A DNA stretch of 59,213 nucleotides, filler included, from Platydemus manokwari (taxonomy: Eukaryota), in assembly GCA_037951405.1 (NCBI GenBank). It is 5 parts of 5 records of this genome, joined end to end, with 100 filler letters (N's around TTAATTAATTAA, not from the genome) between each part and the next. Parts side by side here need not be neighbours in the genome. Positions count along the whole stretch, not along the records: positions 26,529 to 36,491 come from JBBMOY011184544.1; 4 more parts are not named here. One strand, written 5' to 3'. Below, in pieces: positions 13,152 through 54,047 of this stretch. The first letter of the stretch is position 1, and every line of letters starts with the position of its first letter. The position numbers were made by a program, and so were the translations under genes. The notes beneath the pieces are model-generated. The model was not told where the DNA came from. It searched no databases and saw only the letters and a program-made list of their open reading frames with translations.

Positions 13152-14548
13152 CTACACTTCACTACACATGCCAGTCTCGTTCGGTTCTATTGCAGCTTTT
13201 GATGACAAGGAACTACTGATCTGATCTAAACTGGATTCGGACAGAGATCTTGATAATGTCGATCGATTCAGATTGAGTATATCGGGTACTTTGAGAAAAT
13301 TCAATTTGTCCACATTGGTATTTGAAAATCCCTTTTCATATGAATTGAAAAATGCCATTTTCTCATCGTTTGGATCGTGAAATGTCACGAGTTTTCCAGA
13401 TTTTCTATTGTTGATCATTTGTAAACTTCTATAGGAATCGGAAATCTCATTAATCTTATTGATGCCATTGTCTGAAATTGAAGCAGAAGTTCGATACATT
13501 GCATCGAGTTCGGGATTTCGATTGTCAACCATGTTGATTGATGATGACTTACTGGTATTAGTATTATTTTCATCGTAATCTTCGGATATTGTTGGAATCT
13601 GAGCAATGGGGCTTTGTAAGTAGACATAATTTTGATAATTATTTCCATAGCAACCATTATCCCCAGAAGGACCATCATTGAGACGACCCGTTCCTCGTCC
13701 GGACGAATGAGATGAGGATGTACTAAGAGTAATATTGTTATGAAAACATCCATAAATGGTGTCCGGTGATCCACCATATTTATTTCCATGATCACTGATG
13801 CGAGTCGTACTTTGAATGACACCTTGGAAGTCAAAATGAAAAACCCATCTGTTCTTAATGGAAAACGTAAACCAAACAAGAAATTGTAAGACATTAGTCA
13901 CAATACCGAATATTATCGCCACTAGAAATATCGGTGTATGGAAGAGTTGAAAACTATTGTAAAAAGCTACAAATATCAGCGAATCAATGATCAGTGTGAT
14001 GAATAGCAATGTGAAACCAACAGCAATCACCGAAAAAACCCAAATATTCTTTTTCATATTGGTATAATTTATGCATCCATAGGTTTTAAAACCCCTTAAC
14101 CAACCAATTGCTGATTGTGTCTGGCCATAATCAAATACCGCGATGAATCCCAAAAACGCTAAAAGAAAATGGATGCCCACAAGACTCAACATGGTTGGAT
14201 ATTGAATCTGATTTGACATTTTCTTAACCACGTCTAACGAACCCGCATTTCCCGAGCTTTTAATGAAAATCGATCCGGCTTCGTATATAAGCAACCAAGT
14301 AAAACAATGAACGAAAATAATGATAGAATATAAAATGGAAAACCATTTATGAGAATACCAAAGCACGTTTGGCAATCTTATTAGAAACAGTAGAGCCGCA
14401 ACAGAAAAGTTGATAAATTCCAAGCTCAAGGCGCTTGTTTTCGTTACGTAATGGATGTTATTTAATAAATGACCCTTTGGTAACGAATCCGTAAACGACC
14501 AGCTGAAATGATCCGAAAAGAAGTCAAAATTTATGATCCAGATGGAAT
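13152..14548 (-). CDS. tinc: Tincar-like multipass membrane protein, terminal exon (5' exons not found in the window)
   Basis: Acceptor TATTTTAG at 14549-14556, then an open frame SIWIINFDFF...SLEFINFSVAALLFLIRLPNVLWYSHKWFSILYS resembling Tincar (SxEFxNxxxALxxxxxRYPxVFWxxxKxF). Several hydrophobic segments are followed by a Ser/Asn-rich tail. Confidence 0.75.
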
Positions 14549-15052
14549 CTAAAATAAATATTACAAATCAATATTATTATTGATTATATTCTAAAAATAA
14601 TAAAACATATTTTAAATAATAGATTAAGCAATAATTACGAAATCATTTGATTGCAGCAATGAACAGTTTGAGTATTATAGAGGTTTAATAGCAATTTCAA
14701 CAAATAATTCACCTATAGACTAACTATATAATGGTTTCCAATGACTCATCATTTCATAATTCGCTCATTGGTGGATTCGAAGCCATGATCGTATCACTCA
14801 CATTCACCATCACCTGGTAAAATTTGATTTTATTTTCATATCAACATGCACTTCACAATCAATTCAAATTGTCATTATTTTGTTTGAAATATGTGTGCCA
14901 CATTTAATTTACTACCGAAAACATATGTTTGGGACGATCACAAGTGATTGAGTAATTTTTCTGGTGGAATTGATTAATAGGAACTGAGGTTCATTTCAAA
15001 ATACCCATACCATTTTTTAAGTATTCCTTGTTTATCGAGAAGAGCTTGTATT

Positions 15053-24210: not shown

Positions 24211-24214
24211 GTCT

Positions 24215-26232
24215 TGTTATCAATAAGTACATTTATCATCTTTATATTTTTTATTACATTCTTCATACATATAATATTTATAAAAAGTAAGCATAAATGT
24301 AACTTCATAACATATTACACATCCTCCAGAATTTTCTGATTTTTTAAGAAATCGTTTTCCATTTTCTTCAATAAATTTTAATTTATTTGTCTCCATTTTT
24401 TAGGAATTATTTTTTATATTTAAAAATGACCACATTTAGAGGACGATATTTATGTCAGATTTGTAATAAAGAAATTTCTAAATCTAATAAAGCTAAACAT
24501 GAAAAAACCAAATCTCATATGAAATAGACTAATACAAATGGTACGAATATGAATACGATCATGAATAAAAATAAGAAATTAAGAGGTTTTAAATTTATTG
24601 GAGAAGGTGGTAACCGGTGGTGATATACAAGAAGAAATTACAAATAATAATCTTTTAAATAAATATACTACTGGCTGTAATCCTGGAGAATTTCATTTAA
24701 AAAGTATGAATTCTTTTAATAAAAAATTCTGTTCATAATTATACGGGTCAGAAATGAGCTCGAACGTTGATGCAAAGTCAATGCTAGTTGTACAATCCGA
24801 CACTTTCAAATTGTGGGAAACTCCTAAAATCATCATCTACTACTTCAACTGAGAAATCTTTTGAAGGATCTCAGGTAATAACTGATCTCTAGTAAAAACG
24901 TTGGAAAATATATGAACAATCCGCAGCAAGTTTCCTAATTTCGTTATGATAAGAATATGGAAACTGTTCAGAGACTAAAAGTTGATAGGCTTGAAGAGTT
25001 TGATCACCTCTAATGATTACTTAAGGTATAGCCCAAACTAATATTGAAAGATATGAGAATTTTCCAGGAACAAATCTTCCAGAACATTTAGCAAGTTATG
25101 ATCAAATTATTGATTATTATAATGAAACTGAAAAAATACATGATTTATCACGAAATCCAATTATTCCCCCAATTCCCAAAAAAGAATATCAACTTATATA
25201 TGAAATATATGAAAATTCATTGCCACATGATGTTCGTAATATTTCAAAAGGTTTGCAAGAGAGATGCTAGAATGATACATCAAATGGATAATGTTCCTAA
25301 TCCAACATTCAAAGAACAATTAGAAAGATTTTTAATTAAGTATTATGAAGGAGAAAATTATTCTTGAACAGGGTTTATCACGTTTATCACGTTTAGCAAA
25401 AGATTTAGCAATTAAGAAAATATATGGAAATTCTGATGATGGGGATGTAGAAATTAAATATATAAAATTACATGATAAAGATTTACTAGCTCAAGAATTA
25501 TATCATGAACATAAAAAATCTAAGAAAGTTTTGAAAGTTAAAAAATTTTCTAATGACAATACTGAAGGTGCTGATTTAGTTATAATTCCAAAAAATCTAC
25601 AGGAGTATATATATATATATATATATGCTAGTTGTTATTGATTTATACACAAGATATGATTAGTGTATTCTCTCGAAGGATAAAAAACAAGAAAGTTCAG
25701 TTGAGGCCTTTGGAAATTATTATGTGAAATTCAAGAGAATTCCAATATATATATATAGTTTGATAAAGAATCTCGAATTAAAAGTAAAAATTTTGAAAAT
25801 TTTTGTACTTAAATTAAGGTAAAAATTTATTAGAACTTTGAAAAATATTATAGAGAAACATTTTGAAGCTGCTGGAAGTTATAAATGGGATAATAATTTA
25901 TTGAAGAGTTGTTAGTAAACATAATAATAAGGTTTATTCAAAAATTGGTGTTAGCCACATTGAAGCAAGTAAAAACCCTGAAATTATTCAAAAAGAATTG
26001 AGGAATGGAAAAATTTAAATAACAATTTAGTTAACCAAAATTAAAAGTTCTAGATCGAGTGAGAATTTTCAAATATAAAAATAAATTTGAAAAAGGCTCT
26101 ACCACAAAATAGTCAAAAGAAATATTTATTATTAAAGAGGTCTGTAAAATCAAACCAATAGATTATAGATTAATTGATGAAAAGATTTTGAGAAGTTTTT
26201 ATAGTAAAGAGTGAATTTAAACAAAATTTTAG
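24215..26232 (+). mobile_element. Polinton/Maverick (adintovirus)-like fragment, copy 1: C2H2 finger - PLA2 - retroviral-type integrase pseudogene
   Basis: From ATG 24425: YLCQICNKEISKSNKAKHEKTKSH, GDIQE, GEFHL, HNYTG|PG (split by a roughly 310-nt insertion at about 24750-25061), LAQELYH, ADLV, MLVVIDLYTRY, and KLKVLDRVRIFKYKNKFEKGSTTK*SKEIF...FYSKE, which matches the Polinton integrase C-terminus. A decayed RING ORF lies on the minus strand at about 24220-24397. Confidence 0.85.
25606..25626. repeat. (TA)n microsatellite inside the integrase pseudogene
   Basis: Direct reading. Confidence 0.9.
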
Positions 26233-26528: not shown

Positions 26529-26690
26529 TTTGATATCTGGAAACATATCTTCAATATACTTTATATGGAAATTCTCTAATAAATGATTGGGAATGTTATT
26601 GATGTGCTGAAAAAGCTTCTCAATCTACATTATCTGGAAATTCTCTAATAAATTCAGAAAGCTTTTGATTTATGCAATCTAATATAAGGA
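26529..26690 (-). pseudogene. Tryptophan-repeat protein remnant (23-aa repeat)
   Basis: Translation QKLSEFIREFPDNVD*EAFSAHQ*HSQSFIREFPYKVY*RYVSRYQ. The two TGA codons (26620-22, 26551-53) are 69 nt apart and sit where Trp occurs in the LSExFIREFxDKVxWxxISxYQ repeat of entomopoxvirus and phage proteins. Runs into the gap. Confidence 0.65.
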
Positions 26691-26706
26691 TATTTTCATG
26701 TAAACT

Positions 26707-26880
26707 TTATCTGCAATAAGGACATTTATATTTTTTATTACATTCTTCACACATATGGAGTTTACAAAAAGTAAGCATAAATTTTTCATCATAACATATT
26801 ATACATTCTCCAGAATTTTCTGATTTTTTAAGTAATCGTTTTCCATTTCGCTCAATAAATTTTAAATTATTCGTCCCCAT
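26707..26880 (-). CDS. Small RING-finger-like protein (57 aa)
   Basis: Intact ORF MGTNNLKFIERNGKRLLKKSENSGECIICYDEKFMLTFCKLHMCEECNKKYKCPYCR* with a C-x2-C...C-x2-H-x-C-x2-C...C-x2-C pattern. Below the ORF-track length cutoff; a decayed paralog is present in copy 1. Confidence 0.7.
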   Translation of the reverse strand: MGTNNLKFIERNGKRLLKKSENSGECIICYDEKFMLTFCKLHMCEECNKKYKCPYCR

Positions 26881-26909
26881 TTCATAGGGATTATTTTTAA
26901 TATTATAAA

Positions 26910-27800
26910 ATGAGTAAAAATTATTTTTTTCAGATTTGTAATAAGGAAAATTCTAAATATAATAAATCAAAACATGAAAAATCCAAATTTCATTTGAATG
27001 CTATGAGCAGTACGAATGGTATGAATAGTACAAATAATACGATTAAAAGTAAGAAATTAAGAGGTTTTGAAATTATTGGAGGTGATTCAAATAAATTGGT
27101 AGCCGGAGGCGATATACAAAAAGCAATTACAAATAATCAGTTTTAAATAAATTTAGTACGGGTTGCCATCTGGGGGAATTTCATTGAAAAAGTTTGAATC
27201 CATTAAACAAAAGTAATCCTGTTCATAATTATAAGGGTCCGGGAAAAATCTTCAAGAACATTTAGAAAATTATAATGAAATTATTAATAATTATAATGAG
27301 ACTGGAAAATTAGATATATCACCAGTTTCAAAGGAAAATCATCAGCCTGTGAATAGAATAGATGCAAGAGCAATGCAACATGATGTTGATTATACTTCAA
27401 AAAAACTACAAGATAGACATGTTGGTGATGTTAAAATGATACATCAAATGGATAATATTCCAAATCCAACATTCAGAGAAAAATTAGAAAGATTTTTAAT
27501 TAAAAATATTATGAAAGGGAAAATAATGCTTGGACAGGGCTTATTAAAGATAGGGGGACAAAATTCACGTTACCTCTTCTGGCAAAAGATTTGGCAATTA
27601 AGAAATTATATGAATATCCGGATTATATTGAAGAAACTAAGAATGATTTTCCTTCACAAGATGAAAATTGACTAGCTCAAGAATTATATCATGCTTATAA
27701 GAAAGTTAAGAAATTTTTAAAAGTTAAAATATTTTCTAATGACAATACTCATGGTGCTGATTTAGTAATAATGCCTAAAAAATCTACAGAAGGATTTATA
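26910..27800 (+). mobile_element. Polinton/adintovirus-like fragment, copy 2: zinc finger - PLA2 - integrase N-terminus
   Basis: GGDIQKAI, GEFH, HNYKGPG, VNRIDARAMQHDVDY (parvovirus-type PLA2 YxGPG and HDxxY motifs), KGKIMLGQGL, LAQELYH, ADLV. Alignable by eye to 24425-25605; cut at about 27800 by an LTR element. Confidence 0.85.
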
Positions 27801-27801
27801 C

Positions 27802-28992
27802 AGTAACGTCATTAAATAAATAAACACGTGGTGTTTGTCTAAATAATTAATTGGCGTTTTATTGTAGTTTTTCAAATAAATATTATGACGGAATGTGCTT
27901 ATAACTTAACTGGCGACCACGCCATACCAATCAACGCAATAACAAGGAACCAGCAGAAGAACCAGTTATTAGAGAGTTTCCCGAATCAGAGAAATGTACG
28001 CTTACCAAAGATGAAGTAGGATTTTTAGACCACACAGTCAGTGTTAAGGGCATTCAGACAATTTACGACAAAATCTAACAGATACGAGATGCCTCAGTAC
28101 CACATTGTACCAGGAAACATGCGATCATTTTTAGGACGGACAAGCTATAACAGGTGATTCATCAAGGATTATGCTTTAATAGCGGCTCCACTATACACCG
28201 TAATGGCAGTAGGAGATAAGGAATTACAATGGTCAGAATCGCGTCAAACAATTGTTTTTGAGCTAAAGTCGGCACTCTGTGAAGCACCAATTTTGATTAC
28301 CCAAGAGAAAATCGTATATTTGTTCTCGATACCGACGCAAGTTTTGGTCTAATCTGGGCCATTCTAAGCCAAGTTATTGAAGAAAGAAAAGAAGTAGTTA
28401 TAGCCTACGGGTCTCGATTACTGTCTAGTCACGAGAAAGGGTAATGTGTTAGCAGAAAGGAACTGCTGGCTATCCACGAGTATGTTATTTACTTTAGACA
28501 ATACTTGTTTGGGAACAAATTCATCGCGAGAACCGATCACAAAGCCTTGGTATTCTTGAACTCGAAACGAAAACCGATTAGCCCTCAATTTCAAAAATGG
28601 ATGGCGGCGCTGTCAGAATACGATTTCGATTTAAGATACAGAAAAGGAGAGAATCATAGCAACGCAGATGGATTGTCTAGGATCAACGAGACACTATGTT
28701 CCCAGTGCAAGACTAGACACGATGGATCAAAGACGAAAAAGCCGAAAACCAAAAATTTAGCTCAAATACAAATAAAGTCGGAGATGATGCAGAAAATACA
28801 GCAAGCACAGCACAACGATGTAGAAATAGTGGAGACATTCAGATTTCTAAATGTTGAAATAACTCTTACTAGCGCGGAGTACTGGAATAAACATTCACTT
28901 CGACAATACGCTGGTGCTTGAGAAAGAGAACGGTTTAGCTGCTATAATACCGAAAGATTTTGCCGCTCAATTTGTCAAGACAATTCACAATC
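27802..28992 (+). mobile_element. Internally deleted Ty3/Gypsy element (short LTR candidate, PBS, RT 3' part, RNase H, integrase start)
   Basis: About 110-nt candidate LTR with AATAAA, followed by TGGCGACCACG. Peptides: MRSFLG, VLDTDASFG, VIAYGSR, KELLAI, YFRQYLFGNKFIARTDHKAL, YRKGENHSNADGLSR. Confidence 0.85.
27911..27921 (+). promoter_or_regulatory. Primer-binding site, tRNA-Arg type
   Basis: TGGCGACCACG is complementary to the CGTGGTCG-CCA 3' end of metazoan tRNA-Arg(TCG), recalled from known sequences. Confidence 0.65.
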
Positions 28993-30239
28993 TATAGAAA
29001 AGAATCTCAAATTTTACATAAAAATGGTTTTATCAATGAGAAATATAAAACGAAAATTTTAAAGATTAATATAAATTTGAAAAACATTTAAATGTTCAAA
29101 AAGTTTGTGAGGGATGTGTAGAAATCTTGTCCGATAGAAAATAATATTTATTTAACCGATAAAGTCAATATGTAAATTAGAAATATAAACAAAACATCAA
29201 TCGTCTGTAAATCTAAAATGTTTTCTGAAGAAATGATTAGTTTAAATGTATTATTAAATCCTTTTTTAAATGTAAAATTTCTCCTGTGTGATGTATGTCC
29301 CAGGACTTCAGCCAATCAAGTAAACAATGAACAGGGTCACAAACCCTCCGAGCAAGCATTTGTAGCACATGGGCAAGCGGTCTATGATACATGGATTCGC
29401 TTACAACAATTAGAGTACGAATATACTAAAGAGAGAAATTGCGTTGAATGTCTACGAGCACTCAACAAACGATGTTTAATGACAATAGGAACTCCAGCTA
29501 CCTATCCGGTCAGCAACAACGTAGATAACCAGGCCACAGCACGGCCAATCACTAAACGAATGTGCATTGACGCACCTACAACGGAAACTTTTGTATTTAC
29601 GGTACCAGATACGGCTGGTTTACCTCGTCACACTAAGCCTATGCAGCAGGCAAACACGACGGTCAAAAGCACCGATCTGGTTTGCCAACATTCTAATAAT
29701 AAATATGAACCAAGGTCCTCTAGGCCTTTACGCAATAGGAATATTATACATGAACCGAAGTTTGCAGGCCTTTATACCTGTAACCAAGGTCGCGCATCGA
29801 TATGCAATGAATCACAAAAAAGAGACTGACACAGTTTCCTACGGAACTCTATGACCAATTACAGAAACTGACATTGATGACGAAAAGATTAAGAGCCTTT
29901 TATGCTCTCACATTTATGTAACCATACCTAGGGACACTTTAGCCAGAGTGGCGCCTTTACTTGCTCCATTATTGGAACGAACGCCCATTTATCGGAGCTA
30001 GGTACAGCTCCTACTACAAAGATACGGTTATTACAAGGGACGGTATTACCGATGCCCGAGCCAATCTTGGTCTCTGTCTGTATCAAGGACAAATAAGAAC
30101 CAATTCCTAGAGACTCTAAAACGGATGACCAATGTCGCAAATCAGGCATTGAGTACATGGATGAAAATTCAAGGCGGTTGGGATCAATGCGGTCATAATC
30201 AACCCACCCTAACTGACGGTTTAGAAGGGCTGAATGGAG

Positions 30240-32060
30240 AATTTCTTAATACGCTCATTAAAGTCATTTTAATATGTAATCTTGTGGGAAAGACGTCTAT
30301 GCTAACTGCATATCACTGTGCTAAATCCAAACTCTCTACGGTATTTTCATTAGTGGATTTAATGAAATGCCTCGCCTTGCGATTACACAAAGTGCAAAGA
30401 GGACCACCGGAATTTTGCTACATATATCAAGAAATGGAATTTTATCGCACCAAGGTCAAGGAGTGCCGAGTCACAAAAGAGATTTTCGAATACTATTGTG
30501 GAGCGTTCATCCGAGCCTCGTACTTGACGCCAAACTGACACCCAAGAGTATAAACATCTCACCTGAAGCATGCGATGATGCTTTTGTACACGGGAAACTC
30601 AGAGTCGATAGTGGATTAACTTTCACAGCAGAGAGGAAAAATCTTAGTAGAAACTGTTACACGCGCGGAAAAATTCGAGCTGATGGAACATTTTTCTCAC
30701 GTAGTCGAATTAGAAGACTATACTGTGGAATTACGGCAATACGAAGGAACATAGACACTGGAAAAAAGACGCAATACCCCACTTGTAGCTCAACGAACAA
30801 TAGCTGCAAAGTGGATGGAGCAGTTTTAGCATACCGAGCCAAACAAAGTTACTGCGGATTAGCATTTTTAAAGCGAACCAGCTTTACATCTATAAACGGA
30901 ACCGCGTGGGAAGACAAGCCGAACAAACGCCACAAAATCACCAAAGCACGATTAGATGGAAAGCTCGAGGAAGAAACTAGTAAGGAGAGATCTACTCCAA
31001 TCGTATTAATGTCGATACAGCGATCTGATGCAATCAAGTTAATCAGGAGAGCATCTAGAGATAAATTTTGAGTGCTAATGTATAAAACGAACTATTAAGG
31101 CATCTATCTGAGTCAAAAAATGGCTAGGGATGCTTCCAGCATTCATCAAGGCGATATCAAAATTTCGAGCAACTTAAATAACAAGATAGATTATCTCTAC
31201 CATAACCTCCAGTTACAACTCACAGAAATCTATCAGGAAATGATACACAACAACTGTAAAAAGGACAAGGAAATTATTCGAAATAGGATGGCAATTGCTT
31301 TAACAAATCCCGATTTGGTAACGCCAGTCATCATGGAAAACGGTAGATATGGTAGAATAAGTGGCGAAGCTCTATACACATATGAATGCGATGCTATTCA
31401 AGTAACAGTCGCGCAAAGCACCGAATGCACAAGAAAACTAGCAGTTCATTACAAAAATAAAAAGAGGTATATGCAACCGATCACACACGTATTATTGAGA
31501 GAGGGGATGCCACCGCACCCAGCTGAGTGTAATCCACTCATATCCCTACTATACAAAATTAAAAATAAATGGGTAACCATACCTGACCGACGTCCTCCAA
31601 GAGACCCAGTTCAGACTCTGGACTTAAACATTATCGAAGGCAATATCAAATTTCACTCAATTAAGGGCATGGAGCAACGTGGTATATACACACCACAGGA
31701 CATTGAAGATGGGAGGCGAGTCCTCGTGTTCCCACAATTACGTGATCGCGGGATCACAGAAATCATTCGAACTATTTATGTAAATGGAGAAACAGTACCG
31801 AACTACGACTACTTATTCACAGTAGATCATTTTAAAAAGGCAGCTCAGCACATAGCATATTAAATATGGGGACATTTTGCAGCTTTCGGAACATTTGTTG
31901 CCGGCTGTACAGGAATCTATGTCATTGAAATAATTATCAAAGTAGTAATTCATCAACTGATAGCTATCTTTCAATTATATCAAGTTTATGAAGTGTCACT
32001 AAAACTATTATTTGGATTATGCCCAATGTGTGCAAATCATGTATTACATAAACATAATAG
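30240..32060 (+). pseudogene. Chuvirus/Monjiviricetes-type class III fusion glycoprotein (env-like) in element A
   Basis: Signal-like TLIKVILICNLV, then AYHC..FSLVDLMKC, YIYQE...VKECRV...YYCG, NNKIDYLY...LTEIYQEMIHNNC, NPD...GEALYTYEC, EC..LAV.Y...YMQP..VL, ECNPL..LYKIKNKW, GIYTPQDIE...FP, and membrane-proximal/TM IWGHFAAFGTFVAGCTGIYVIEIIIKVV. The motif series parallels chuvirus glycoproteins. One frameshift near 30505 and several stops. Confidence 0.82.
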
Positions 32061-32258
32061 AGAAGAGATTCAACTCGTTCTAAAGCTCATGACTCTGAAG
32101 CATCAACCAGTAAGGGAAACACCACCCGAATGGTTACAAGGTTACTTTCCTCCTAGGTGTAGTACGCCGAAAGCTCACCGTATAATTCCGATAATGAATC
32201 CGGATTTAACTCTGACGCAAGAGTAGTTTACAAACTAATTCAAACACAGGCACAGCAA

Positions 32259-35200
32259 TTGAGGCGAACTAGAAGAATGTATAAGTTATTGGACCAAATG
32301 GACAAAGCTGCGACATCCAAATCAGAATCGAATACAACCACAGCGCTGACTACTTATCCACTCGAGGAATTAAAAAAATATCAAGAAAAAACCGAACAAA
32401 TTGATACCATGATGCAACGACAGAATCAAAGCGGTTACACCGAACGACATTATATGGTGAATGACGAAAATGCATCTGAGAAATTAATTCAAATACGAGT
32501 CAATCGACATATTGCTTTAGCATTAGTGGACACTGGCGCTGCTTCCACTATAATACATTCGAGTATTCTTAACATATACGAACTACAAGGAATCGAAGAA
32601 ACGAATATAACAATCACAAGCATCAATGGAAGTGCCTTACCACTAATGGGAACGTTAAATTGTAAACTCCATTTATATGGCGAAACAGTACCAGTCTCTG
32701 TTAAAGTTTCTAAACACTGTCCATGTGACTGCGTAATCAGAAAAGATGTATTACGACAATTGAAAGGAATTATGTATGAATGTACCACAGTAGCACTCGC
32801 GAAAATAACCGCATTCATGGAACAAACCAGCATGCCACTCAGTGCATGCATTGCAACAGTTAAAAAAGGACAAATACCCATACGCATCGCTAATTTAACA
32901 AAAGAACAAAATATATGTAGATTAGGACAATTATCTGAGTATGTTCTCGAGTCTCAAGAAAAAACTTCTCCAAAATTATACGGGCCATTACAAACACAAA
33001 GCGCGGACATTCTCCCGCAACAATGCCAACAATTGACATAACTATTGAATAGATACGCCGAAGTCTTTGCCAAACATGAACATGATTTGGGCAAATGCAA
33101 TCTCATACAACATCGGATCGAGTTAAATGATCCTCACCCTATTTGTCAACGGACATATCGTACACCCATAGCAATGGAAGCCGAAATACCACGACAGATA
33201 AACGAATTACTCGATCAAAGACGAATCAGGCCTAGTAATTTACCATGGAGATCCCCAATAGTCATGGTCAAGAAAAAGAAAGGCAAAATGCGCATGTGCA
33301 TAGATTACCAAAAGGTCAATGAACAGACCCACTACCACTCATTTACAAAATGGTGAATCGAGTGAGGGGAGCAAATCTATTTACCACACTGGATCTCCAA
33401 ACAGGTTATAACAATATTGAAATGCATGAGGACTCGATACCAATTACCGCTTTCACTGACCGGAAAGGGTTGTACGAATATATGGTTATGCCATTCGAAC
33501 TCACCGGAGCCCCGGCAACTTTTCAACGTGCTACGAATCTTATGTTAATAGATACACACCACGCCATGGTGTACATTGATGATGTTATCATTTTCTCTAA
33601 TGGTTTTGATGAACAAATTGGAGATATAGAAGAAGTGCTGAAGAAAGTTATCGCTACTTGTGTCAAATTGAAGCCTACAAAATGCGAATGGGCAAAAAAG
33701 GAAGTTAAATATTTAGGCCACATAATATCCGGACAAAGAGTCAAATCGGACAGAGCATATATTGCCATAGTCGAATTGTATCCCAGGCACAAAGCTAGCA
33801 AACACATCCAAGAGTTTCTCGGATTAGTTAATTATTACAGAAGATTTATACGCAATTGTGCGGCCATAGCTAGGCAATTGAACGAATTATTACAGAAAAA
33901 CAAACCATTTCGATGGGGGCCTGAACAGGAACAAGCATTTATAGCATTAAAGAAAAGCCTCATTGCAGAACCCATTCTCAGACACCCGAACATGAGTATA
34001 TACTTTATCATTATGACGGATACAAGTGGTTATGCCATCGGGGGAGTTCTAGGTCAAGTGGACAACAATGGGAACGAATATGTCATAGCATATGTGAGCA
34101 GGGGCCTGAAGAGTCAAGAAAAGAACTATGCTGTTATTGAATTATAGGCGTTAGCAATAGTCTACGCAGTAGAACGGTTTCGAACCTTTATCTACGGTCA
34201 CGAGGTACATGTGTTAACCGAACATAGACCACTCCAGTGGCTCTTACAAGATCGCGATACAGCGTTTCGTTTAATTAGATACAATACAATATAAAAATTT
34301 GCCACAGACGAGGCAAAACAAATGGGAATGCAGACGCCTTATACTGAGCAAATCCCGGTAATTATGAAATAGATAATGATAATGTTTTTACTGCTGTCCA
34401 TTCATTAGGACAGGATGCAGATATTAGCCGATTACAAAAAGAAGATGAGGAAATAAGGAAATATTTGATGCACATAGATGATCTCCCTTCGAACTGGAGA
34501 AATTTCCAAGTGATTGATAACCAAATTCCGAATCCTTCGTGGACAAAATTTATTAAAAAAATATAGGGAGCAAATTGTATTTGAAGGCGATATTTTGAAA
34601 ATACAAGAGGCGGACGGGCACACTATTATCGTACCACAATCGCTACAAGATGCCATGCTACTTCATTATCATGATAGCCTTTTAGGGGGCCACTTATCTG
34701 AAGGGAAAATGCATTCACGACTACGACAGAAATACCTCTGGAGAAATATGAAGGTAGATGTAAATAATTGGTGTGCATCTTGGTGTGCCAAACCCGGAGA
34801 AATACGGGACAAAAATGTAAAGTTCCACTATGGCCAATGCCAGTGCCAAAATCACCAATGGAAACCGTAGCAATGGATTTAATCAGTCCATTACCTCTAA
34901 CGAAAAATGGTAATAAATATATTTTGGTCTTCTGCGACTACCTCACCAGGTAGCCAGAAGCATATGCAATTCCGGATTGAATGGCCAACACAGTAGCCCG
35001 GACATTTGTCGAAGAAATAGTATACCGTTATGGTGCTTCAAAGAAATTACTCACGGACAGAGGTGGAGAATTTCTTAATAATACATTGGATGAAATCAAT
35101 CGTATTTTTAAAATAACAAAGCTCAATACTTCACCATACCACCCTCAAACCGACGGGTTGGTCGAGAGATTCAACGGTACTCTCACTAATATGTTAGCAT

Positions 35201-35700
35201 CACATAAAAGCACAAGCCAGACAGATTGGAATGTTCACATCTCATCTTGTCTATTCGCATATCGAACTTCTGAACAATCCAGCACCAGCTATACTCTATT
35301 TTATTTAATGTATTTTTGGCATAGTTGCATGCCTGTAGACATCACAATTGACTCACAATTATCACAATACATGGATGAGGAAGACTATGTAGTAGTCATG
35401 AAGAAACGATTAGCCATCGCATGGCATAAGGCAAATCTAAACGTTCGTTATCGACAAGAACAAATGAAAGACACATACGATAAAAATAAAAAGGATCACA
35501 CACTACAAATAGGCGATAAAGTCATGCTTGAAAGCAAGGGGAGTGCAAAAAGGAAATCTCGCTCAAATTAAGTCTACCTTTCAAGGGCCGTTACATTATC
35601 GAGCGAGCTACTGACACTAACTTTGTAATTAGACCAGTTGGCAAAACATCTACAGAGCCAATATGGGTACATGCAAATCTCTGTAAACGCTACGAAGAAA
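32259..35700 (+). pseudogene. pol (protease, RT, RNase H, integrase with GPY/F-like tail) of element A
   Basis: ORF-track fragments 32259-33041, 33045-33356, 33350-34147, 34514-34870, 34768-34953, 34981-35571, plus LPFKGRYII...VHAN after a frameshift. Confidence 0.93.
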
Positions 35701-36491
35701 CTACAACACAATCAATGGACTCGACCACAGATACTGCAATTAATACGACAAGGAAATTCTCGGACAAAGCAAAGAAGAAAACAATGACTGGCAGCTATAG
35801 GGGACATCGATACCCTTTAGGTTCACAAATGTTTTCACTAACACGTCCACCAATTATCCGACCTATTTAGACATACAATTTGGGAAACTTTTGGGTAAGC
35901 ATAATTGCTCATAAAGACCCCTCACAATTTTACAGTGCAACTTTAATACGAAATTACCATAGCAAAGAGACAGTACAATTTACTCATCAACAACATGTAT
36001 TCGGAAATTTATGGCCAAATGAAACAATTACTCGTATATTGACATGTTAAATATCCGAAACTCGACAGTTACATCAGTTGCATGATAATATTAGTGTTGG
36101 GATAGTATGGAACGTCTTGTGCTCTATTCAGATAGTGAAGAGAGCGAAGACGAGAAAATCCCATATTCCATAAAAACATATAGTGAATGGAGACAGCAAC
36201 AACAGCTGTCCCAACACCAAAAACAGCCGCTGCAAAACAAACCTTTAGAATTCAAAAGACCAAAAACACCCCCAAAACAGAGACCCGGAACACCAACAGT
36301 TAAACCCGCAGCAGTAATAAAATCAAGGGAAAATTGGACTACCCAGAGCTGGAGCGTGGACTTAGACGCTTGATGTCAGTGGAAATTCCCATCTACGAAC
36401 TCGAGGAGTCAAATCCCAGAAATCAAGACAGTCAGCCCAGTCTCAAATAATGATATTGATTTTATATTCAACTGTTTAACAGTGTCTTTGA

Positions 36492-43039: not shown

Positions 43040-44666
43040 ATGCTCCTCTGCGTTCCAACTCCTCAATTCTCTCATCGAGGGATTGTACCCTCTCTCGGGT
43101 TTTAATTTGTTAGGTTTCTGGGATTTCTTTTGTTGGCATCTCCTCGTCCTCCGGGGTGAAGTACTTTTCCTCTTCCATCTCCGCGCGAGTGTGCCATCCG
43201 TATTTAACCTTAGACTCTGGGTTGTACACGTCAAGACCTTTGGTATATATCCATAGCTCATTCTCATCCAGAATCTCTACAGAGTCTGGAGTATCCCATA
43301 ACAATTCTTCTTTTGTATCTATTTCCTCCAACTTGATCCTTTTACTGGTGGAAGGTTGACATTCTCCTGTGGTTCTACTTGTGGATGGTCTGGGCTCCTC
43401 TTGATTCGTTCGATATATCCTTGGATAACGATGTCTGAATCTTCCCAGTCTCCTTTTTCTTCGTTTCGTTGCTCTATTTTCTTGGATTGCTCTGTTTTCT
43501 TGGACGGGATTCTCAACTTGGTTTCCTCCTAGTCCTTTCTTTCTTCGCTTGTTTCCTTGAGTTCGAAAAGATTATGATCTGTCCACCTGGAATATACAGT
43601 GAGGTAGATTTTCTTTATTATTTCTACAATATGACTTTTTTATATTTCATAAACTTCCTTGGGAACTCATATTTGACATAATGACTCGATAGTCTTTGGA
43701 GGGCGAATCTTCCATTACTCCTCTTCACGCCATCATCTCCAAATACTGGCGTATTTGGTAATTCTCTCACTCCACATAGGTCACCGAGAGTGATTCTCAG
43801 AGCTAAGAGTCCTTCCAATACTCTATGACCGATAACAACTGTTCCCCTCAATAATTTATTTACTTCCTCTTTGGCCAACAGTTCATCTCTCCTTCCTTGA
43901 ACGGTTTCTTCGATTAGGCCATATTGAGGTGTTCGGTAGTCCAAGATTCAGGCTCTTTTGGTAATTACATTTGAATACGTCAATTTTCCTTGATAGTCTA
44001 GTATATTGACGGCTATCGGAACAAGCTCGTTGGCAAATTCCAGTTGTGCTAATGCCATATGAACAAATCTCACTATTCGTTTTATATCCTGCTCCGTCAT
44101 TTTCATTCGTAAAAAGGATCTGTGATTTTCGATTTGGAGGCAGTCGTTGTTCAACTCCCCAAATGTTTTTTTAGATTGACGGGGTGCCTTTCCCCAATTG
44201 GGTTGATCCTTAGCGAATATGGTTAGTGACCACATTTCTCTTTCTTCGTGTATATTTCTCATTACAATCTTTTTGAGGTTCTCACTGGATCCTTCAATAG
44301 TCTTTGTTGCATAGGGTATCACTATAGTTTTCAAACCCATTTCCGGGATGGCAACTTCAATTGCTGTGAGGACGTTATCGATCTCGATCTCTTTTTGGTC
44401 CTCTATCAGTCCTTTTATAGGCAATTCACCTTCTTAGAAACATTAGAAACTCTTAGAAACATTCTTCTGTTTTCCACCGCTTTCTCATTGAGGCAATTGG
44501 GTATATCTTGTACCCTTGTAATATTGATCTGCCTCCAATGATTAATATTCATGAAGACCTCTACTCAAGCATAAAGGATTCGGGCTTTTATCGTCTTCTT
44601 TACTGACATCGCTTTTCTTTTTGACATTGTGGTTGCTTCTGTTTCTGTTGTGGGTTTATTGCTCAT
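43040..44666 (-). pseudogene. Accessory ORF containing a REX4/ISG20-like (DEDDh-fold) exonuclease domain and an acidic tail
   Basis: AVNILDYQGKLTY, DYRTPQYGL, KEEVNKLLRGTVVIGH, LALRI, ALQRLS, IYL....W follow the REX4 pattern RVSIVN..G...YD / DYRT.VSGI / V.KLL.G.ILVGH...DL / SLK.LA. Interrupted by stops and frameshifts. Confidence 0.62.
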
Positions 44667-44696: not shown

Positions 44697-45545
44697 TTAT
44701 ACTCTTTTCATAAAAGAACCTAAACAATTTACTTTATACATTAGATACACTATGTACTGTACTTTATAATTTAATTTATACAGTAGATTCACAATGTACT
44801 GTAATTTTAACATCGAGTATCCTGGATTCCTCTTTTTTGAATATATATAATACTGTCGGTAGCTGACTACCAATCTCGTTTTTACTGTTACTATGACTAT
44901 CAGGATCGCAATGGTTATCATTACAAATCTTATTGTCATTAACTGTTCTACGGATCTTAAAGATTCTTTGTCCTGATTTGATTCGTTTCCTCTTTCTGGT
45001 CCGATAACTATTCTCTTCAAATGAGTACCGGGAAGCCGGAAAACCGACTCCGTAGTCAATTTATTCCTCATTTTCCTCCGGTTTCTTTTAGCAATCATGG
45101 CTTTGATCCATATCCGGATTGACTGCCAGTCTCTGGTTGTCGTAGGTTTCATTGTCGTAGTCATAGGTAATGGCAGCCGTTTGAAACTATATTCTGGGAC
45201 TGTTATATCTACTTCCTCGTATTGTTCAATCCAAAATTTAGCTGACTCTTTATTCAACCGATTATACCTTATATGAGGTTTTATAGGCCTCCTTTCTTCC
45301 AATGTCATGTCATATCTCCTATTTTTCTCATCTAAAATCAGTACCGTATTCTCCATTTGAATCTGCACTGTATAATTTCTCTCTGGCTTCCAAATCCAAA
45401 TTACCTTTTCTTTTGACACATGTATTTTTACTGTTGCACATATCCACCTCGTCTTCACTCTGTATTTCTGTCTAGTTTTCCGGCTACGGTCACTTTAGCT
45501 TGAAACCACTGCTAGAAAAACCAGTAAACTCGTGACGATCTCAAA
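44697..45545 (-). pseudogene. Putative type-I membrane protein ORF in the 3' region of element B
   Basis: Hydrophobic IVTSLLVFLAVVSS (then one in-frame stop at 45495-97), a Thr-rich stretch, basic KRNRRKMR, TM FVMITIAILIVIVTV and a short tail. Confidence 0.45.
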
Positions 45546-47129
45546 TTATTTAATGAAACCTTATTCCTATGTTTTCCTAAATAAACTTCGGCTCTATTTC
45601 CTTCGCTTAATAATAAGGCCATTGACACCAGCGGGTCACTGTCGCAATCACAAATGGAACAAAGGGAAGGTATCTTTTCTTGTCAATTCGTTGACCTTCC
45701 TATAATCTATACAAATTCTTTGAGTTCCATCTTTCTTCTTTACCAATATAAAAGGTGACCCCCATGGTGATGAACTCTCTCTTATAGTTTCATTACTTAA
45801 CATTTCTTGGACCTGTTTATTCACTTCTCCTTCCAAGGTGTATGGCACTCGATATGGTCACTGTCTGATGGACGTTGGTTCTGTTAATATAATATTGTGT
45901 TTCTGTATAGTACATTTTCCTAAATCGTACTCGTTTTTAACAAACACATCGTGGTACTTCTTAAATTTATTTAGTAACCTTTTCTTCAGGTTTTCATTCA
46001 AAATCTGGCTTTCAATTGTAATGGGCTTATAACTCACAACATCGTTTATGTTTCCAATGACCGTTTCTGGTTCTAGGGCTGATAATTTCCACATCCTCAT
46101 GTCTGGCATGAGTCTTCTCGTTCTCGCTACTTGTTCCTGAGCATTGAATTCCTTGGCCATTAGTTTGTTTGGTTCGAACAACATTGGCTCAGATCCTTGT
46201 ATGTCTGTCTGCGCAAAGCATACTACTTCTGATCGCTCTGCTATTATCACTGTTTCTGTTACATAAGCTTCATCTTGTTTTCTCTTCCCTCGTTTCCTTT
46301 TCATTGCGATTAAGTTTCCGGAGGCCAAATCAAACACCGCTCCGTCCATTTGTGCTAAGATATCCACTCCAATTAATACTTCATAAGGACAGTTTTTCAT
46401 AACCCTTAATTCATGGGTGAACTTGTATTCACCGATTTGTACTTTGCATGAGTTTTTGCCTTCAAATGCGATTTTCTCTCCTGTAACAGTTCTAGACAAG
46501 CCTACTCCCTTGAGTGGCTTTAATTCTTCCTTGGTTAACATTTTATGTGAGATAATTGATACATTTGCTCCTGAATCTATTAATGCTAACATCTCGTAGT
46601 CATTATCTTTTACTTTTCTGACTGTCCGGTTCTATTTACTTTTTCTTTCAATTTACTTATTGATGTGTGATGCTTTGCCAGTAAGACAAAATTAGCAATG
46701 AAAGGTACACATACCATCAATCCTTTCCAAGTACATTCTAGTACTCTTATTAGTGCATATGTCGAAATACACTGATTCAACACCACCCTTATTAGAACTA
46801 TTACAAACCAGATTCCTAAAAATGCTGATACCACATTTCCTATGGCTACAAATCTTCCCCAAGGAAAGTCATTGCTGCTCTATTAAAGTGGTCTGATGCT
46901 AGCAAGTTCTCGAAGTGCGGCTGCTCTCCGCCTCCTTGCATTACTAAATCTACCATTTGTCTGATCACTCTTTCTTGCCTCAATGGAAACATTAAGTTTC
47001 TTCTTGCTTCTTCTATGTCTTCCAGGGTATAAATTCCCATTTTTGCAATATCATTTTACCAGGTTGAGTCAAAAGTTATTCATGTTTTTATGCAGGTATT
47101 TTATTAACACAAATTGTTATAACGCTGAA

Positions 47130-49022: not shown

Positions 49023-52007
49023 TTAGTCTCTGCAATCCTGTGGTTGAGATATACTTGGTTTTTTTGTGATTGATTTATGCTTGTAGTCCTCCTTTTTACT
49101 TATCTTGAGTAATGGTTCATTTATGCCACTTCCGATTTCTATTTCTACTACGTCAGCATCTAAATCGATGGACTCGTTATTAAGTATAGGATGTTTTGGT
49201 ATGGCCCATTTAATATCGATAAGATTCTGGACTGTTTGAATTTGCTCAACTTGATCATTGGTCGCTAATTCGTGACGTGTACAGCATTCCTGTATGCATG
49301 TAAGCATGATGTAATGTGCTCGTCCCAGTTATTTTGAGCTTCGTTTACGTATGATGACAGCATATTTAGTAAAGTTTCATTAAACCTTTTAACCAATCCG
49401 CGAAGCTGCGGATGGTATGGTAAGGTGTGTAACTTGATTATTTGGGGATGATCATTTATTTCAGTCAATGTGTTATTGAGGAATTTGGTTTCCCTATCGG
49501 TAAATAACCGGTTTGGTACCGTATCTGAGTATGATCTGTTCAATTAGATTCGTCTTATGATCCGGAATTAGATGTGGCTCTGGCCACAAAGGGCTATTAA
49601 GTATTTGTTACCATTTGGTGTCAATGGTAATGTCCCAACCATATCAATAATCATCGTTTTCATGGGTGCGTAAGGTGCTGACTTGGATTTTAATGGTATC
49701 TCGTATTTCTTATCAGTATTCTTTCTTGTCTGACATATTTGAATTGTTTGGCTTCATTTCGATTTTCTTATTTCATAGTTCTCCAATGTCATTTCTGTTT
49801 TAGGCGTGAGAGCGTTTTTCTAGTAGGGTACTTCCTATGATCCCATCATGACATTGCAATCGTAAAATATTTTTTAACTTTCAGACCTGATTATCAGTTT
49901 TTTGTCTGCTTCTTCATATTTTAATATATCCCTGTGTTTCTTAAGATAAGAAGGAGATTCGTCCCATGTTTCCCACGAATATTGGATCCCCAATTGTTAG
50001 TAGTAATAATCACCAGTCTTTTACACCAGCATTCTCAAATACTCAATAGCTCTCACTCGTTCATATTTAAGAATTACTGCGATAACAAACCGGTATATAT
50101 TACAACTATTGCTATACCGTATATTTCATTATCTTGCCTATGAAGTCTACTAAGTTCAATTTTATTTTGGAATTCCTGTACGGTTTATACAATGCTTGAG
50201 GTATCGATTTTATAGGCTTCATGTATGGGTCGAAATAATGCGTCTACATTTTCGCTATTTTTACCTTTACGATATTTTGATATTTTATTGTTGAAGATTT
50301 AATGCCCATCGGATAAGCTGTGATGCTACGTCCCTGTGCTGTAACAGCCATTTTAAAGGTCTCTGATCTATTAATTCGTGGATTTCTTGTTCTGAACTTT
50401 TCGACTGCATAGACTATTACTAATGCTTTGATTTCGATTAGAGCGTAGTTTTTCTCGTGGTTTTTAAATCCTCCACTGACGTTTGATTTGCATATTCATT
50501 TCCATTTTCATCGATTTGACCCAGTACTGATCCTATCGAGCAGCTACTGGCGTCGGTTATAATATAAATGATTTGTTAGGAACTGAAAGCCTCAATATAG
50601 AGTTCTTCTATAGGTTTTTCCTTGAGAGCCTGAAAAACTTTTTCCTCTCTTCATTCCAGACAATTGGTTTGTTTTTCTGTAGTAATATTGCAGAGATGGC
50701 TGCACAATTTCTAATGAATTTTTGGCAGTAATTTACTAGCCCGGTAAATTTTTGTACTTGTATCATGTTTATTAGTTCTGGAAAATTTTCTACTTTTTCT
50801 ACATATGCCTTATCCGGTTTCGCCCTTCTCCTAAGATGACATGTCAAAGACACTTTAACTCTTTCATTTCCCATACATGTTTTGTGGGTTTAAATTTAAC
50901 GTTAGTGGAGATCATTCGCTCAAATATTTGTTCTAGATCTTTCAGGTGTTCATCGAACTTGGTTGTAAAGCTGATGACATCGTCAATGTATATGATTTCA
51001 TGTGATCATCCCATGAGTACAAGGTAAATTGCAAACTGGAAGTTTTGTGGTCCGCATTTTAATCCAAAGGGCATGACTGTCCGCTTAAGTATTTTCTTCA
51101 CATCTGTAAATGAAGTGATGGGTTTGGATTCTTCGTTTATAAGGATATTATTATATCTGTTTGCAAATCTAGGGTTGAAAAGATGGTTGATAGTTTAGGC
51201 TTAGCACAATCGTATGCAGTGACCATAAATGTTTTATTAATTAACTAGAAAGTTAGTACGAGTTTTATTAATGTCCCCATAAATCCTTCATTTAGCCCTT
51301 CGAATACTCGCTATTCTCCTATGAGATTGGAGTTATTTGGTATGAAATTTCCCAACAGCTGATGAGTTGAAACCACCCATTGAGTGATTGGTGTGCTTAT
51401 CATAGTCATTCTATTGACTGTATCATTTAATTGGTTATCAGTAAGCCTGGTGGCTTGTAAGATTTTATTAGCTAGATAGGTGAATGATACTTTCGTACAA
51501 AATTCAGCTAATTCATATTGGACTACTTCCGATATAAGTGTTTATGGATCATTGATCCTATTATTTATCAGAGCTTGTTTGATTCTTGGAAGATATCTTT
51601 TAATCTTCTTTATTAATTCTTGATGGGAGTTTGTGGTAGTTTTGTGTTTTGAGGATCGACTTTTTCAATAATTTTAGCTTTTGACGGAAAGAGTAGCTTC
51701 GTCAGCAATACCTCGTAGTATAAATAATCCTTATTAATAAATTTATTCTTTGGTTTAAGGAACGAAACTAAAGATGGTTTCTCAATTTTGGACATCTTGA
51801 TTTATTCCGTATCTATTGCAAAATTTGTGCCTTGTGTGTCGACTCGCAACGCTTTTAGTAAGCTGTAATAGGTTAAGCTCAGTGCTGCATCAATATGGTT
51901 ACGAACTCCGTTTAAAATTGGTCATCAATCAATTAAATTTTTTTATGTTGGCAAATCTAACATTGGACCGAAAGTCGTCTCAATATTGTTTGAACCATGA
52001 CATGTGA
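49023..52007 (-). mobile_element. Element C: decayed, internally deleted Gypsy element related to A (N-terminal domain - glycoprotein start fused to RT - RH - IN)
   Basis: FEGLNEGFMGTLIKLVLTF*LINKTFMVTAYDCAKPKLSTIFS (51176-51315) matches element A LEGLNGEFLNTLIKVILICNLVGKTSMLTAYHCAKSKLSTVFS. Then TLDLQT, MPFGL, IYIDD, FTGLVNY, TDASS, NYALIE, PYHPQ..GLVKRFN. Confidence 0.88.
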
Positions 52008-52195: not shown

Positions 52196-54047
52196 ATGGA
52201 TATGGTAGAGAATTTATGAATTATTATGCCATTTAATTATCTTTCATGTTTAGAATCAATACGCTCAATCGGGATTCTATAATTCCGAATATCCTACCAA
52301 TGAACGAGATCTAACCGTTAATGCCGTGAAGAATCCAGTAGAAAATGATAACATACATAAACTACTCAACTTCAAGCCATCCGGAAAACAAATGGAATGT
52401 ATAGTAATTATGCTTGATGGATCTGAAAAGATTTTCTCTCTTGATGTAAGCGATTATTTGACAATTGATAAAAGGAAAACTTTCAATATTTTTATAGAGA
52501 TCTTCATATGGACAACAATTATTTGAAATTATTCTGGAATATCTAGGAATTAATGAACGAGAATATTTCGGAATCACTTACAAAGATGGCAATAAAGATA
52601 AAGTAATTTAGACGATTATTTCTAATAATTGAAATGATATTCATGTTTTTCTAGCATTGGTTGGAATGCGCAATAAAAATCTCGAATCAAATGAAAAGTA
52701 AGTTCTCGTTTTGAAACATTTAAATACACCCCCATTAGGAGAAATTATAATCGGGAAAATTTGAAACTATCAATTTTTCTGCCCTACTTATTATTTTATA
52801 AATTTGGTCGCACATGTATTTCCGTAAATTTATAATAAAATCGATTTAAATTAATCAATTATCGTACAAATAATTTAAATTATAAAATCCGGAATATTTA
52901 ATCGATTTTCTTTATTTAGATAAACAAATGGTATTCGAATTTCAAGTAAAATATTATCCACCGGAAATTGGAATGGTAAAGACAAACATTACCAAATATT
53001 ATCTCGCTCTACAAATCAGACAAGACATTTGTTGTGGAAAGTATGTTCATGTTTTATAAATGAAATCTATGCTTGATTATTATTTCACAGGTTGCCGTGT
53101 TCATATTACGTTTACTTGACTCTAGCTGCTTATTTTATTCAATCTGATGTCGGAGATTACTACTATGAAATTCATAACGATATCGATTATATTAAAGCTT
53201 GTTCCGTTGCTCCATTTAAAATACAAACACCAACATTTATGGAAGAGTTGATGGAATGGCACAAATTGCATCAGTAAGTCATTAACAGTGAAATGTAATT
53301 TTCATTGATAAATTAATTGCAGAGGCTTAACGGCAGAAGAAGCGGACGAATGTTTACTGGAAAATGCAACCAAAATGGCATTGTATGGATTTGATTTTCA
53401 TCAAATGAAGGTAAAATGATATTGATTTACATAATGATATCAATAATTGAATCGAATAATTCTAGAACACGGATGCAGAAGACGTTGTAATGGGAGTCAA
53501 TCATGCCGGTATCGTGATTTTCAATCAGAAATGTCGAATGTTCAAATTCGCTTGGTATCGACTGATAAGAGTGAAGTACAGAGAAAAGAAATTAATTATC
53601 ACAATTCGAGGACTGAATGAATTCGATCCAAACAAAAAATTAAAATTTAAATGTGTATCGGTAAATCTTGCAGAAAGAGCATATAAAGCTGTTATTGATC
53701 ATCATTTTTTCTTCCGACGAACCGGGTTTAACAATCGTTTAAAAGAATTCAAAGAGAGAAAATTACAAGAAATCGATTATCGAAAGAAAAAACAATTATT
53801 AAAAAGGAATACATCCAGCGGAAATGATTCGAAAGCAATTTCTGCTATGACATCATTGGAAATAAGAGATAAACTATTGGATACAGTTAGAAAAGATTCA
53901 ACGAAACAGATTGTTAATCAAAACAATCATATCGATAAATCGCCAACATTGAAAGAACCCAAACCAAATCAAATAAACAACAGCGAACACAAAGTTTCAA
54001 GATTATTACAGTCGATAGAAAACTCCAGAAATCATTTAGCCAAATAA
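52196..54047 (+). CDS. Band 4.1 / coracle-like FERM-domain protein, 8 exons
   Basis: Exons 52196-52204 (tentative), 52254-52445, 52498-52602, 52655-52697, 52920-53040, 53091-53273, 53323-53410, 53466-54047 splice in frame. Motifs: CIVIMLDG, GQQLF, EREYFGI, HWLE, FQVKYYPP, TKYYLALQIRQDI..GKLPCS, IQSDVGDY, LENA.KMALYG, GVNHAGI, FAW, DHHFFFR. Poly(A) signal near 54102. Confidence 0.92.

Follow-up and report, generated by a model that had tools for sequence, protein, structure and literature searches.

A decayed Ty3/gypsy retroelement of Platydemus manokwari in which a gene for a gB-like fusion glycoprotein precedes protease and reverse transcriptase

Introduction

In the planarian Burro/GYPSM1 elements gag, a ubiquitin-like unit, BCL2, env, protease and reverse transcriptase (RT) follow one another in frame (Arkhipova and Yushenova 2019, PMC6431247, which cites Jurka 2007 and Grohme et al. 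2018), and decaying fragments with stops and frameshifts were described in one planarian genome (PMC6431247). 'Ancient errantiviruses' of the order GAG-ENV-POL, whose ENV is of the HSV/gB type (HSV, herpes simplex virus), were reported in Nematoda, Bryozoa and Platyhelminthes, together with an ENV-GAG-POL order in two mites (Chary and Hayashi 2026, PMC13524379). The latter paper links the same gB-type glycoprotein to Chuviridae and to mosquito BEL/Pao elements, and cites the non-canonical nematode endogenous retroviruses of Sacco et al. 2022, where the env/pol order is flipped in a metavirus. We analysed a stretch of 59,213 nucleotides (nt) of DNA from Platydemus manokwari (assembly GCA_037951405.1; hereafter the window), starting from a first-pass annotation of its sequence. 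The window holds what is very probably the decayed copy of a Ty3/gypsy retroelement in which a gene for a gB-like fusion glycoprotein (G) comes before those for protease, RT, RNase H and integrase. It is likely a relative, of compact size, of the Burro-like gag-(Bcl-2-like)-env-pol elements. Neither the env-before-pol layout nor the fusogen type nor the Bcl-2-like cargo is new to the literature; the layout, which the first-pass annotation did not recognise and took to be possibly new, is known from Burro/GYPSM1 and from the GAG-ENV-POL errantiviruses.

Layout of the main element

The window is made of five small AT-rich contigs with N spacers between them, and its GC content per kilobase ranges from 19 to 42%, with the retroelements higher than the rest. 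The main element sits on the contig at 26529-36491. A Pfam scan of stop-free pieces gave the Ty3/gypsy order on the plus strand, G being followed by protease, RT, RNase H and integrase, and the gypsy-type families appeared in order (PF13975, PF00078, PF17917, PF17919, PF17921 and PF00665); no peptidase family of the BEL/Pao type was among the matches. G through integrase occupies about 5.5 kb and includes a single protease. The DTGA motif of this protease lies at 32529, about 470 nt past the end of the G membrane segment, as had been noted in the first pass, and the YIDD motif of RT lies at 33572. The element, first placed at 29290..36491, does run to 36491, but this position is the end of the contig and not the end of the element. 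Its parts are as follows.

29290..30079, plus strand: unassigned leader region, in which no gag, zinc knuckle or long terminal repeat (LTR) was recognised
30080..30208, plus strand: probable Bcl-2-like remnant that corresponds to the rear half of the domain, contains a BH2-like motif and immediately precedes the envelope signal (profile of four relatives)
30236..30310, plus strand: signal-like hydrophobic stretch and start of mature G, aligned with the signal region of relatives
30240..32070, plus strand: gene of a predicted class III (gB-like, Monjiviricetes-type) fusion glycoprotein, with stops and frame changes (PF24664 and fold model)
31867..32060, plus strand: membrane-proximal and transmembrane segment of G
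32163..33041, plus strand: spacer, then aspartic protease (DTGA motif at 32529) and the region behind it (Pfam, motif)
33042..33900, plus strand: RT (YIDD at 33572), broken (Pfam, motif)
33900..34290, plus strand: RNase H, broken (Pfam, tblastn with relatives)
34560..35750, plus strand: integrase (zinc finger, core and C-terminal part), broken (Pfam, tblastn with relatives)
35750..36491, plus strand: unassigned 3' region, cut off by the contig end

The pol part is interrupted many times by stops and frame changes, every gene of the copy is broken, and the copy is inactive. Several points weigh against the assignment given above. A tblastn search of the whole window with the gag regions of five relatives detected neither gag nor a zinc knuckle, and no LTR pair was found on the contig 26529-36491, which breaks off at 36491 and on which the 5' part of the copy borders the remnant of another element; the full element is inferred from relatives. 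The frames of G and protease differ in the main element and also in a second element of the window (see below), and a single polyprotein is therefore not established for this family. Finally, the likeness to Burro, to the nematode elements and to the errantiviruses is one of described features, so that the element is placed by kind and not by exact clade.

G resembles class III fusion glycoproteins

The profile PF24664 (Monjiviricetes_fusion) matched three stop-free pieces, namely 30002-30535 (profile positions 6-88, expect value (E) 7.6e-5), 31099-31860 (positions 296-507, E 9.8e-40) and 31864-32223 (positions 540-609, E 4.9e-11). The middle piece, 30325-31068, had no Pfam match alone, and the single frame from 30766, with stops read as X, matched at E 3e-57. 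Hydrophobic peaks were seen as a signal-like stretch from about 30251 and as a transmembrane peak at about 31915, and seven of the eight cysteines conserved in relatives are kept in the stretch of G that was read. The near-complete glycoprotein first proposed at 30240-32060 is thus borne out in its near full length, its signal and its transmembrane segment, but it is broken by three internal stops in the frame from 30766 and by frame changes in the 5' third.

When a profile of 99 G sequences was compared with the PDB, all 24 matches were to herpesvirus gB (E 0.03-0.33). An AlphaFold2 model of the part of G from 30766 on reached a mean predicted local distance difference test score (pLDDT) of 84.4 and showed beta-rich domains, a central helix of 48 residues and long C-terminal helices; with this model Foldseek returned gB in 40 of the 40 rows listed, the best at E 8.9e-4. 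For the relative P0007, the ESM Atlas gave clusters of Monjiviricetes, rhabdovirus G and gB at 0.91-0.95. Against this stands the modest quality of the Foldseek matches, with a template modelling score of at most 0.31 over the query and a single row below E 0.001 among those listed. The profile and fold scores, modest yet concordant, support the prediction that G is a class III (gB-like) fusogen, as the first-pass annotation had proposed. Its term 'chuvirus-type' holds for the broad family (PF24664), but the G proteins most similar to it belong to other env-pol retroelements.

Relatives carry G and pol in one chain

A HMMER search with G over 1.84 billion proteins gave 797 matches at E 0.001, from which 18 were picked by rank and length for domain scanning; 13 further proteins were scanned later. 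The best 10 matches are 31-35% identical to G, and in nine of them the chain that holds G goes on to an aspartic protease, while the remaining one, P0007, ends just past G. The G-then-protease order was found in 13 of the 18 scanned matches (the exceptions being P0007, P0012, P0030, P0075 and P0087) and in three of the 13 further proteins. The chain continues through RT, RNase H and integrase in P0002, P0004, P0016, P0027, P0153 and P0155 and in two of three metagenome loci (L001 and L003; the third is L002), and gag markers stand upstream of G in five relatives (P0005, P0011, P0027, L002 and L003). L001 is a single frame of 3426 amino acids (aa), and L003 is a single frame of 2693 aa that begins with gag and continues past G as far as integrase. 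In L002, gag is followed by a zinc knuckle and a ubiquitin-like unit; an in-frame stop then comes ahead of G, within which the locus ends.

By tblastn the polyproteins of the relatives are collinear with 30090-35780. In the window some 220 codons separate the membrane-proximal motif of G from the first protease motif; both motifs were located in 12 of 15 relatives examined, and in 11 of these 12 the distance is 132-215 residues. A quick tree of 19 rows places the window G inside the env-pol clade (Shimodaira-Hasegawa-like approximate likelihood ratio test 86, no bootstrap), and the six relatives with the most similar G also have the most similar RT (47-51% identity versus 40-41% for the other three). 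On the other side, the rank correlation between G and RT does not reach significance (rho 0.64, p 0.07, n = 9 related rows). Taken together, the comparisons support the reading that G is natively upstream of protease-RT in the main element, which was also the first-pass proposal. The accompanying suggestion that G sits at or just after the position of gag is right in that G follows gag in the relatives, but G does not take the place of gag.

Some further features of the relatives were seen. P0002, P0005, P0153, P0155 and L001 have two to seven protease-type motifs per polyprotein, some of them past integrase; P0155 carries ankyrin repeats and a C2H2 finger as extras, and L001 an extra signal-plus-membrane module between proteases. 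At 3058-3060 of L002 a lone in-frame TGA separates the gag-ubiquitin-like-Bcl-2-like part from the envelope signal, and may reflect read-through or decay. The NCBI entry for P0004 calls it a hypothetical protein from a Flavobacteriaceae metagenome-assembled genome; it is likely animal DNA that was binned with a bacterium.

Further pol remnants and other explanations of the gene order

Three other retroelement remnants of the window bear on the gene order.

45660..47129, minus strand: second, diverged element on a different contig, in which protease and the beginning of RT come straight after the end of G and its membrane segment (PF24664, E 3.2e-8)
49277..51616, minus strand: third remnant on a different contig, in which an internal deletion has brought the start of G up to RT, RNase H and integrase (tblastn with relatives)
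about 27980-29000, plus strand: separate gypsy pol remnant (RT end, RNase H, integrase start) of a much more abundant family

The second element repeats the G-protease junction, yet has no detectable DNA similarity to the main element; its G and protease are out of frame in the same relation as there. The genome thus holds at least three diverged env-before-pol remnants in this window. Two of them, and the Bcl-2-like remnant before G, had been overlooked in the first pass.

The gypsy RT-RNase H remnant just upstream of the main element, on the same strand, creates an apparent pol-env order, and G could in principle be the 3' env of that remnant, with an unrelated pol joined behind it by nested insertion. 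The upstream remnant, however, stops near the start of integrase, its RNase H is 36% identical to that of the main element without any DNA match, and its summed contig depth is 10^4-10^5 as against about 10^2 over the main element, which is a rough contrast and not a copy number. In the relatives, moreover, protease lies directly behind G in one chain and at the same spacing, and the junction recurs in the second element. When contigs of run X1, which may itself be the source of the window, were aligned to the junction, 75 of the 99 were less than 99% alike, so that several diverged copies exist; diverged contigs (records 4 and 6) cover the tail of G and reach across the spacer to protease, although none spans the whole junction. 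A chimeric origin is already largely refuted, and we regard it as very unlikely.

Given that G natively precedes protease, their differing frames might reflect programmed ribosomal frameshifting where G ends, which would yield Gag-Env in excess over Gag-Env-Pol. The two frames overlap by about 60 nt, the frame relation is the same in the second element, the overlap holds one in-phase slippery-type heptamer, and P0012 stops right after G. But the chance probability of such a heptamer is about 0.14, and the 80 nt behind it are less stable than shuffled sequences (-7.0 versus -9.3 ± 2.7 kcal/mol); the copy has many frameshifts of decay elsewhere, and nine of the 10 best relatives are uninterrupted at the junction, although searching among proteins is biased towards such chains. 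The frameshift signal is at chance level, and a programmed event is improbable. That G replaced gag, in an env-pol element borrowing its capsids from other elements, would agree with the lack of gag and zinc knuckle in the window and with the roughly 800 nt before G that are unassigned; yet gag markers precede G in five relatives, and the 5' part of the copy adjoins the remnant of another element, which suggests truncation. To a gag-less element we give almost no credence, and we retain the order gag, G, pol for the intact form.

A probable Bcl-2-like remnant precedes G

A helical domain precedes the signal in 4 of the 18 relatives with a recognisable G start. A profile of these four, built without the window, was run on 1974 six-frame tiles; its top match was 30080-30208 (E 8.4e-7), and the next place went to the third remnant, at the expected position and with a weak E of 0.43; the front half of the domain did not score in any frame of the window. 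Among loci held out from the profile, L001 (E 1.6e-18) and L002 (E 7.5e-21) were found and L003 was not. An alignment of the four relatives and the window piece (A1), compared with the PDB, had Bcl-xL or Bcl-2 as the best 60 of its 119 matches (best E 3.8e-4), and Foldseek with a model of the P0003 domain returned the Bcl-2 family in 47 of the 47 rows listed.

Other results tell against this identification. The PDB match of A1 covers only about 34 positions. Pfam Bcl-2 stayed below the cut-off in four of six relative segments (P0007, P0003, P0012 and L002; E 2.5e-5 to 0.052) and had no match in P0030, L001 or the window pieces. The P0003 domain model is of low confidence (pLDDT 55.6) and its Foldseek scores are E 0.15 or worse, the ESM Atlas gave no support for the call, and two of the four profile seeds had been chosen by the BH2-like pattern, which biases the profile toward a BH2-like match. 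The single tests are weak, all point in the same direction, and the literature has the motif at the same place; we take the domain before G to be likely Bcl-2-like. In L002 a ubiquitin-like unit stands before this domain (PF00240, E 3.4e-4), and no ubiquitin-like match was found in the leader region of the window, 29290..30079.

Comparison with described elements

Several features are shared with Burro/GYPSM1, in which a BCL2-like motif also lies directly before env (in the window only the second half of the domain scores), env stands between gag and protease and matches mononegavirus fusion glycoproteins (PMC6431247), and protease, RT, RNase H and integrase follow in the same order; the ubiquitin-like unit of the relative L002 has its counterpart there as well. 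Burro is, however, a giant element, with an internal region of up to 25 kb, an open reading frame (ORF) of about 4,900-5,100 aa and MATH, BIR and ankyrin motifs (PMC6431247). The window copy measures about 5.5 kb from G to integrase, has no MATH, BIR or ankyrin Pfam match in its surviving part, the 5' part being lost, and lacks gag and LTRs. Env is in frame between gag and pol in Burro and in nine of the 10 best relatives, and out of frame in the window copy. No Pfam match was found to a Burro-type dUTPase-like region between protease and RT, a region for which no profile-profile search was made. Because the copy falls short of Burro in size, we class it as a Burro-like GAG-ENV-POL element and not as Burro.

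With the GAG-ENV-POL errantiviruses the element shares a Ty3/gypsy pol and a gB-type env ahead of pol, and a gag upstream of env was seen in five relatives, not in the window copy. Further marks of that group are an RT that falls with its named elements and an RNase H plus 'mini' domain in the bridge region. Unlike the elements of that survey, which kept intact ones only, the copy is decayed, and in the available parts of PMC13524379 we found no mention of a Bcl-2-like domain. The mosquito BEL/Pao elements with a chuvirus-like glycoprotein (Dezordi et al. 2020) share the broad family PF24664. In contrast to them, the window pol is of the gypsy type and G precedes protease rather than lying behind integrase; P0087 (23% identity), the sole match with the BEL/Pao-type C-terminal domain DUF5641, has its G behind DUF5641. 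The nematode elements mentioned above reportedly have one continuous gag-env-pro-pol frame.

What the window contributes is a further genome in which diverged env-before-pol remnants, at least three of them, occur; by itself this is of little significance since the design is published and the copy is dead. The relatives show the Bcl-2-like-env-pol design also in elements far smaller than Burro.

Proposed working of an intact member

The domain order, the hydrophobic segments, the breaks and the single-frame relatives with gag ahead were observed directly; the scheme that follows is a proposal based on what is generally known of such polyproteins in membranes. The prediction for intact members is that a single long polyprotein is threaded through the membrane of the endoplasmic reticulum (ER). 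Gag, the ubiquitin-like unit and the Bcl-2-like domain would be made first and remain cytosolic. The envelope signal would act as an internal signal and, after the signal peptidase cut, might stay as the tail anchor of the Bcl-2-like domain, while the G ectodomain would fold in the ER lumen and then trimerise. Transfer would be halted by the G membrane segment, so that protease, RT, RNase H and integrase would emerge in the cytosol on the tail of G, from which the element's own protease could release them. Particles would bud with G on their surface and enter other cells by class III fusion, and the Bcl-2-like domain may dampen apoptosis of the producing cell. More speculatively, the two or more protease-like units after G in several relatives could aid dimerisation of the tethered protease. 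The window copy is capable of none of these steps, because every gene is broken and gag is missing.

gB normally needs a receptor-binding partner. A signal-like and a membrane segment were seen after integrase in five of the five relatives scanned, and likewise by eye in L001 and L003; the contig of the main element ends short of any such module. It is conceivable, though we hold it doubtful, that these elements form a compact, non-giant branch of Bcl-2-bearing gag-env-pol elements, in which one chain would supply both a gB-like fusogen before protease and, after integrase, a fast-evolving type I membrane protein as its receptor-binding partner. No mention of a post-integrase membrane module was found in the available parts of PMC6431247 and PMC13524379, and no literature search was aimed at it.

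Other features of the window

After the deleted pol of the second element, an ORF at 44700-45560 (minus strand) has the shape of a type I membrane protein, with a signal-like start, a Thr-rich stalk and a membrane segment; within it, 44877-45146 has a weak match (E 0.055) to the post-integrase modules of relatives. Downstream of the same element, 43630-44100 (minus strand) is a remnant of an ISG20/ISG20L2-like exonuclease (PDB match at E 1.5e-4 over 71 aa) with no Pfam match. DEDDy exonucleases are known as extra ORFs in rotifer LTR elements (PMC5408684).

Two diverged copies of one repeat lie on two contigs, at 24212-25595 and 26696-27781, and are 79-92% identical in blocks. An ORF in the repeat (27235-27672) weakly matches a phospholipase A2-like family (PF08398, E 5e-4), a hint of an element akin to parvoviruses or Polintons. 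Pieces of host genes were found at 3-661, 13155-14567 (minus strand) and 52254-54047: a protein kinase (casein kinase 1-like by eye), a multi-pass membrane ORF of 471 aa with no Pfam match, and a FERM-domain gene.

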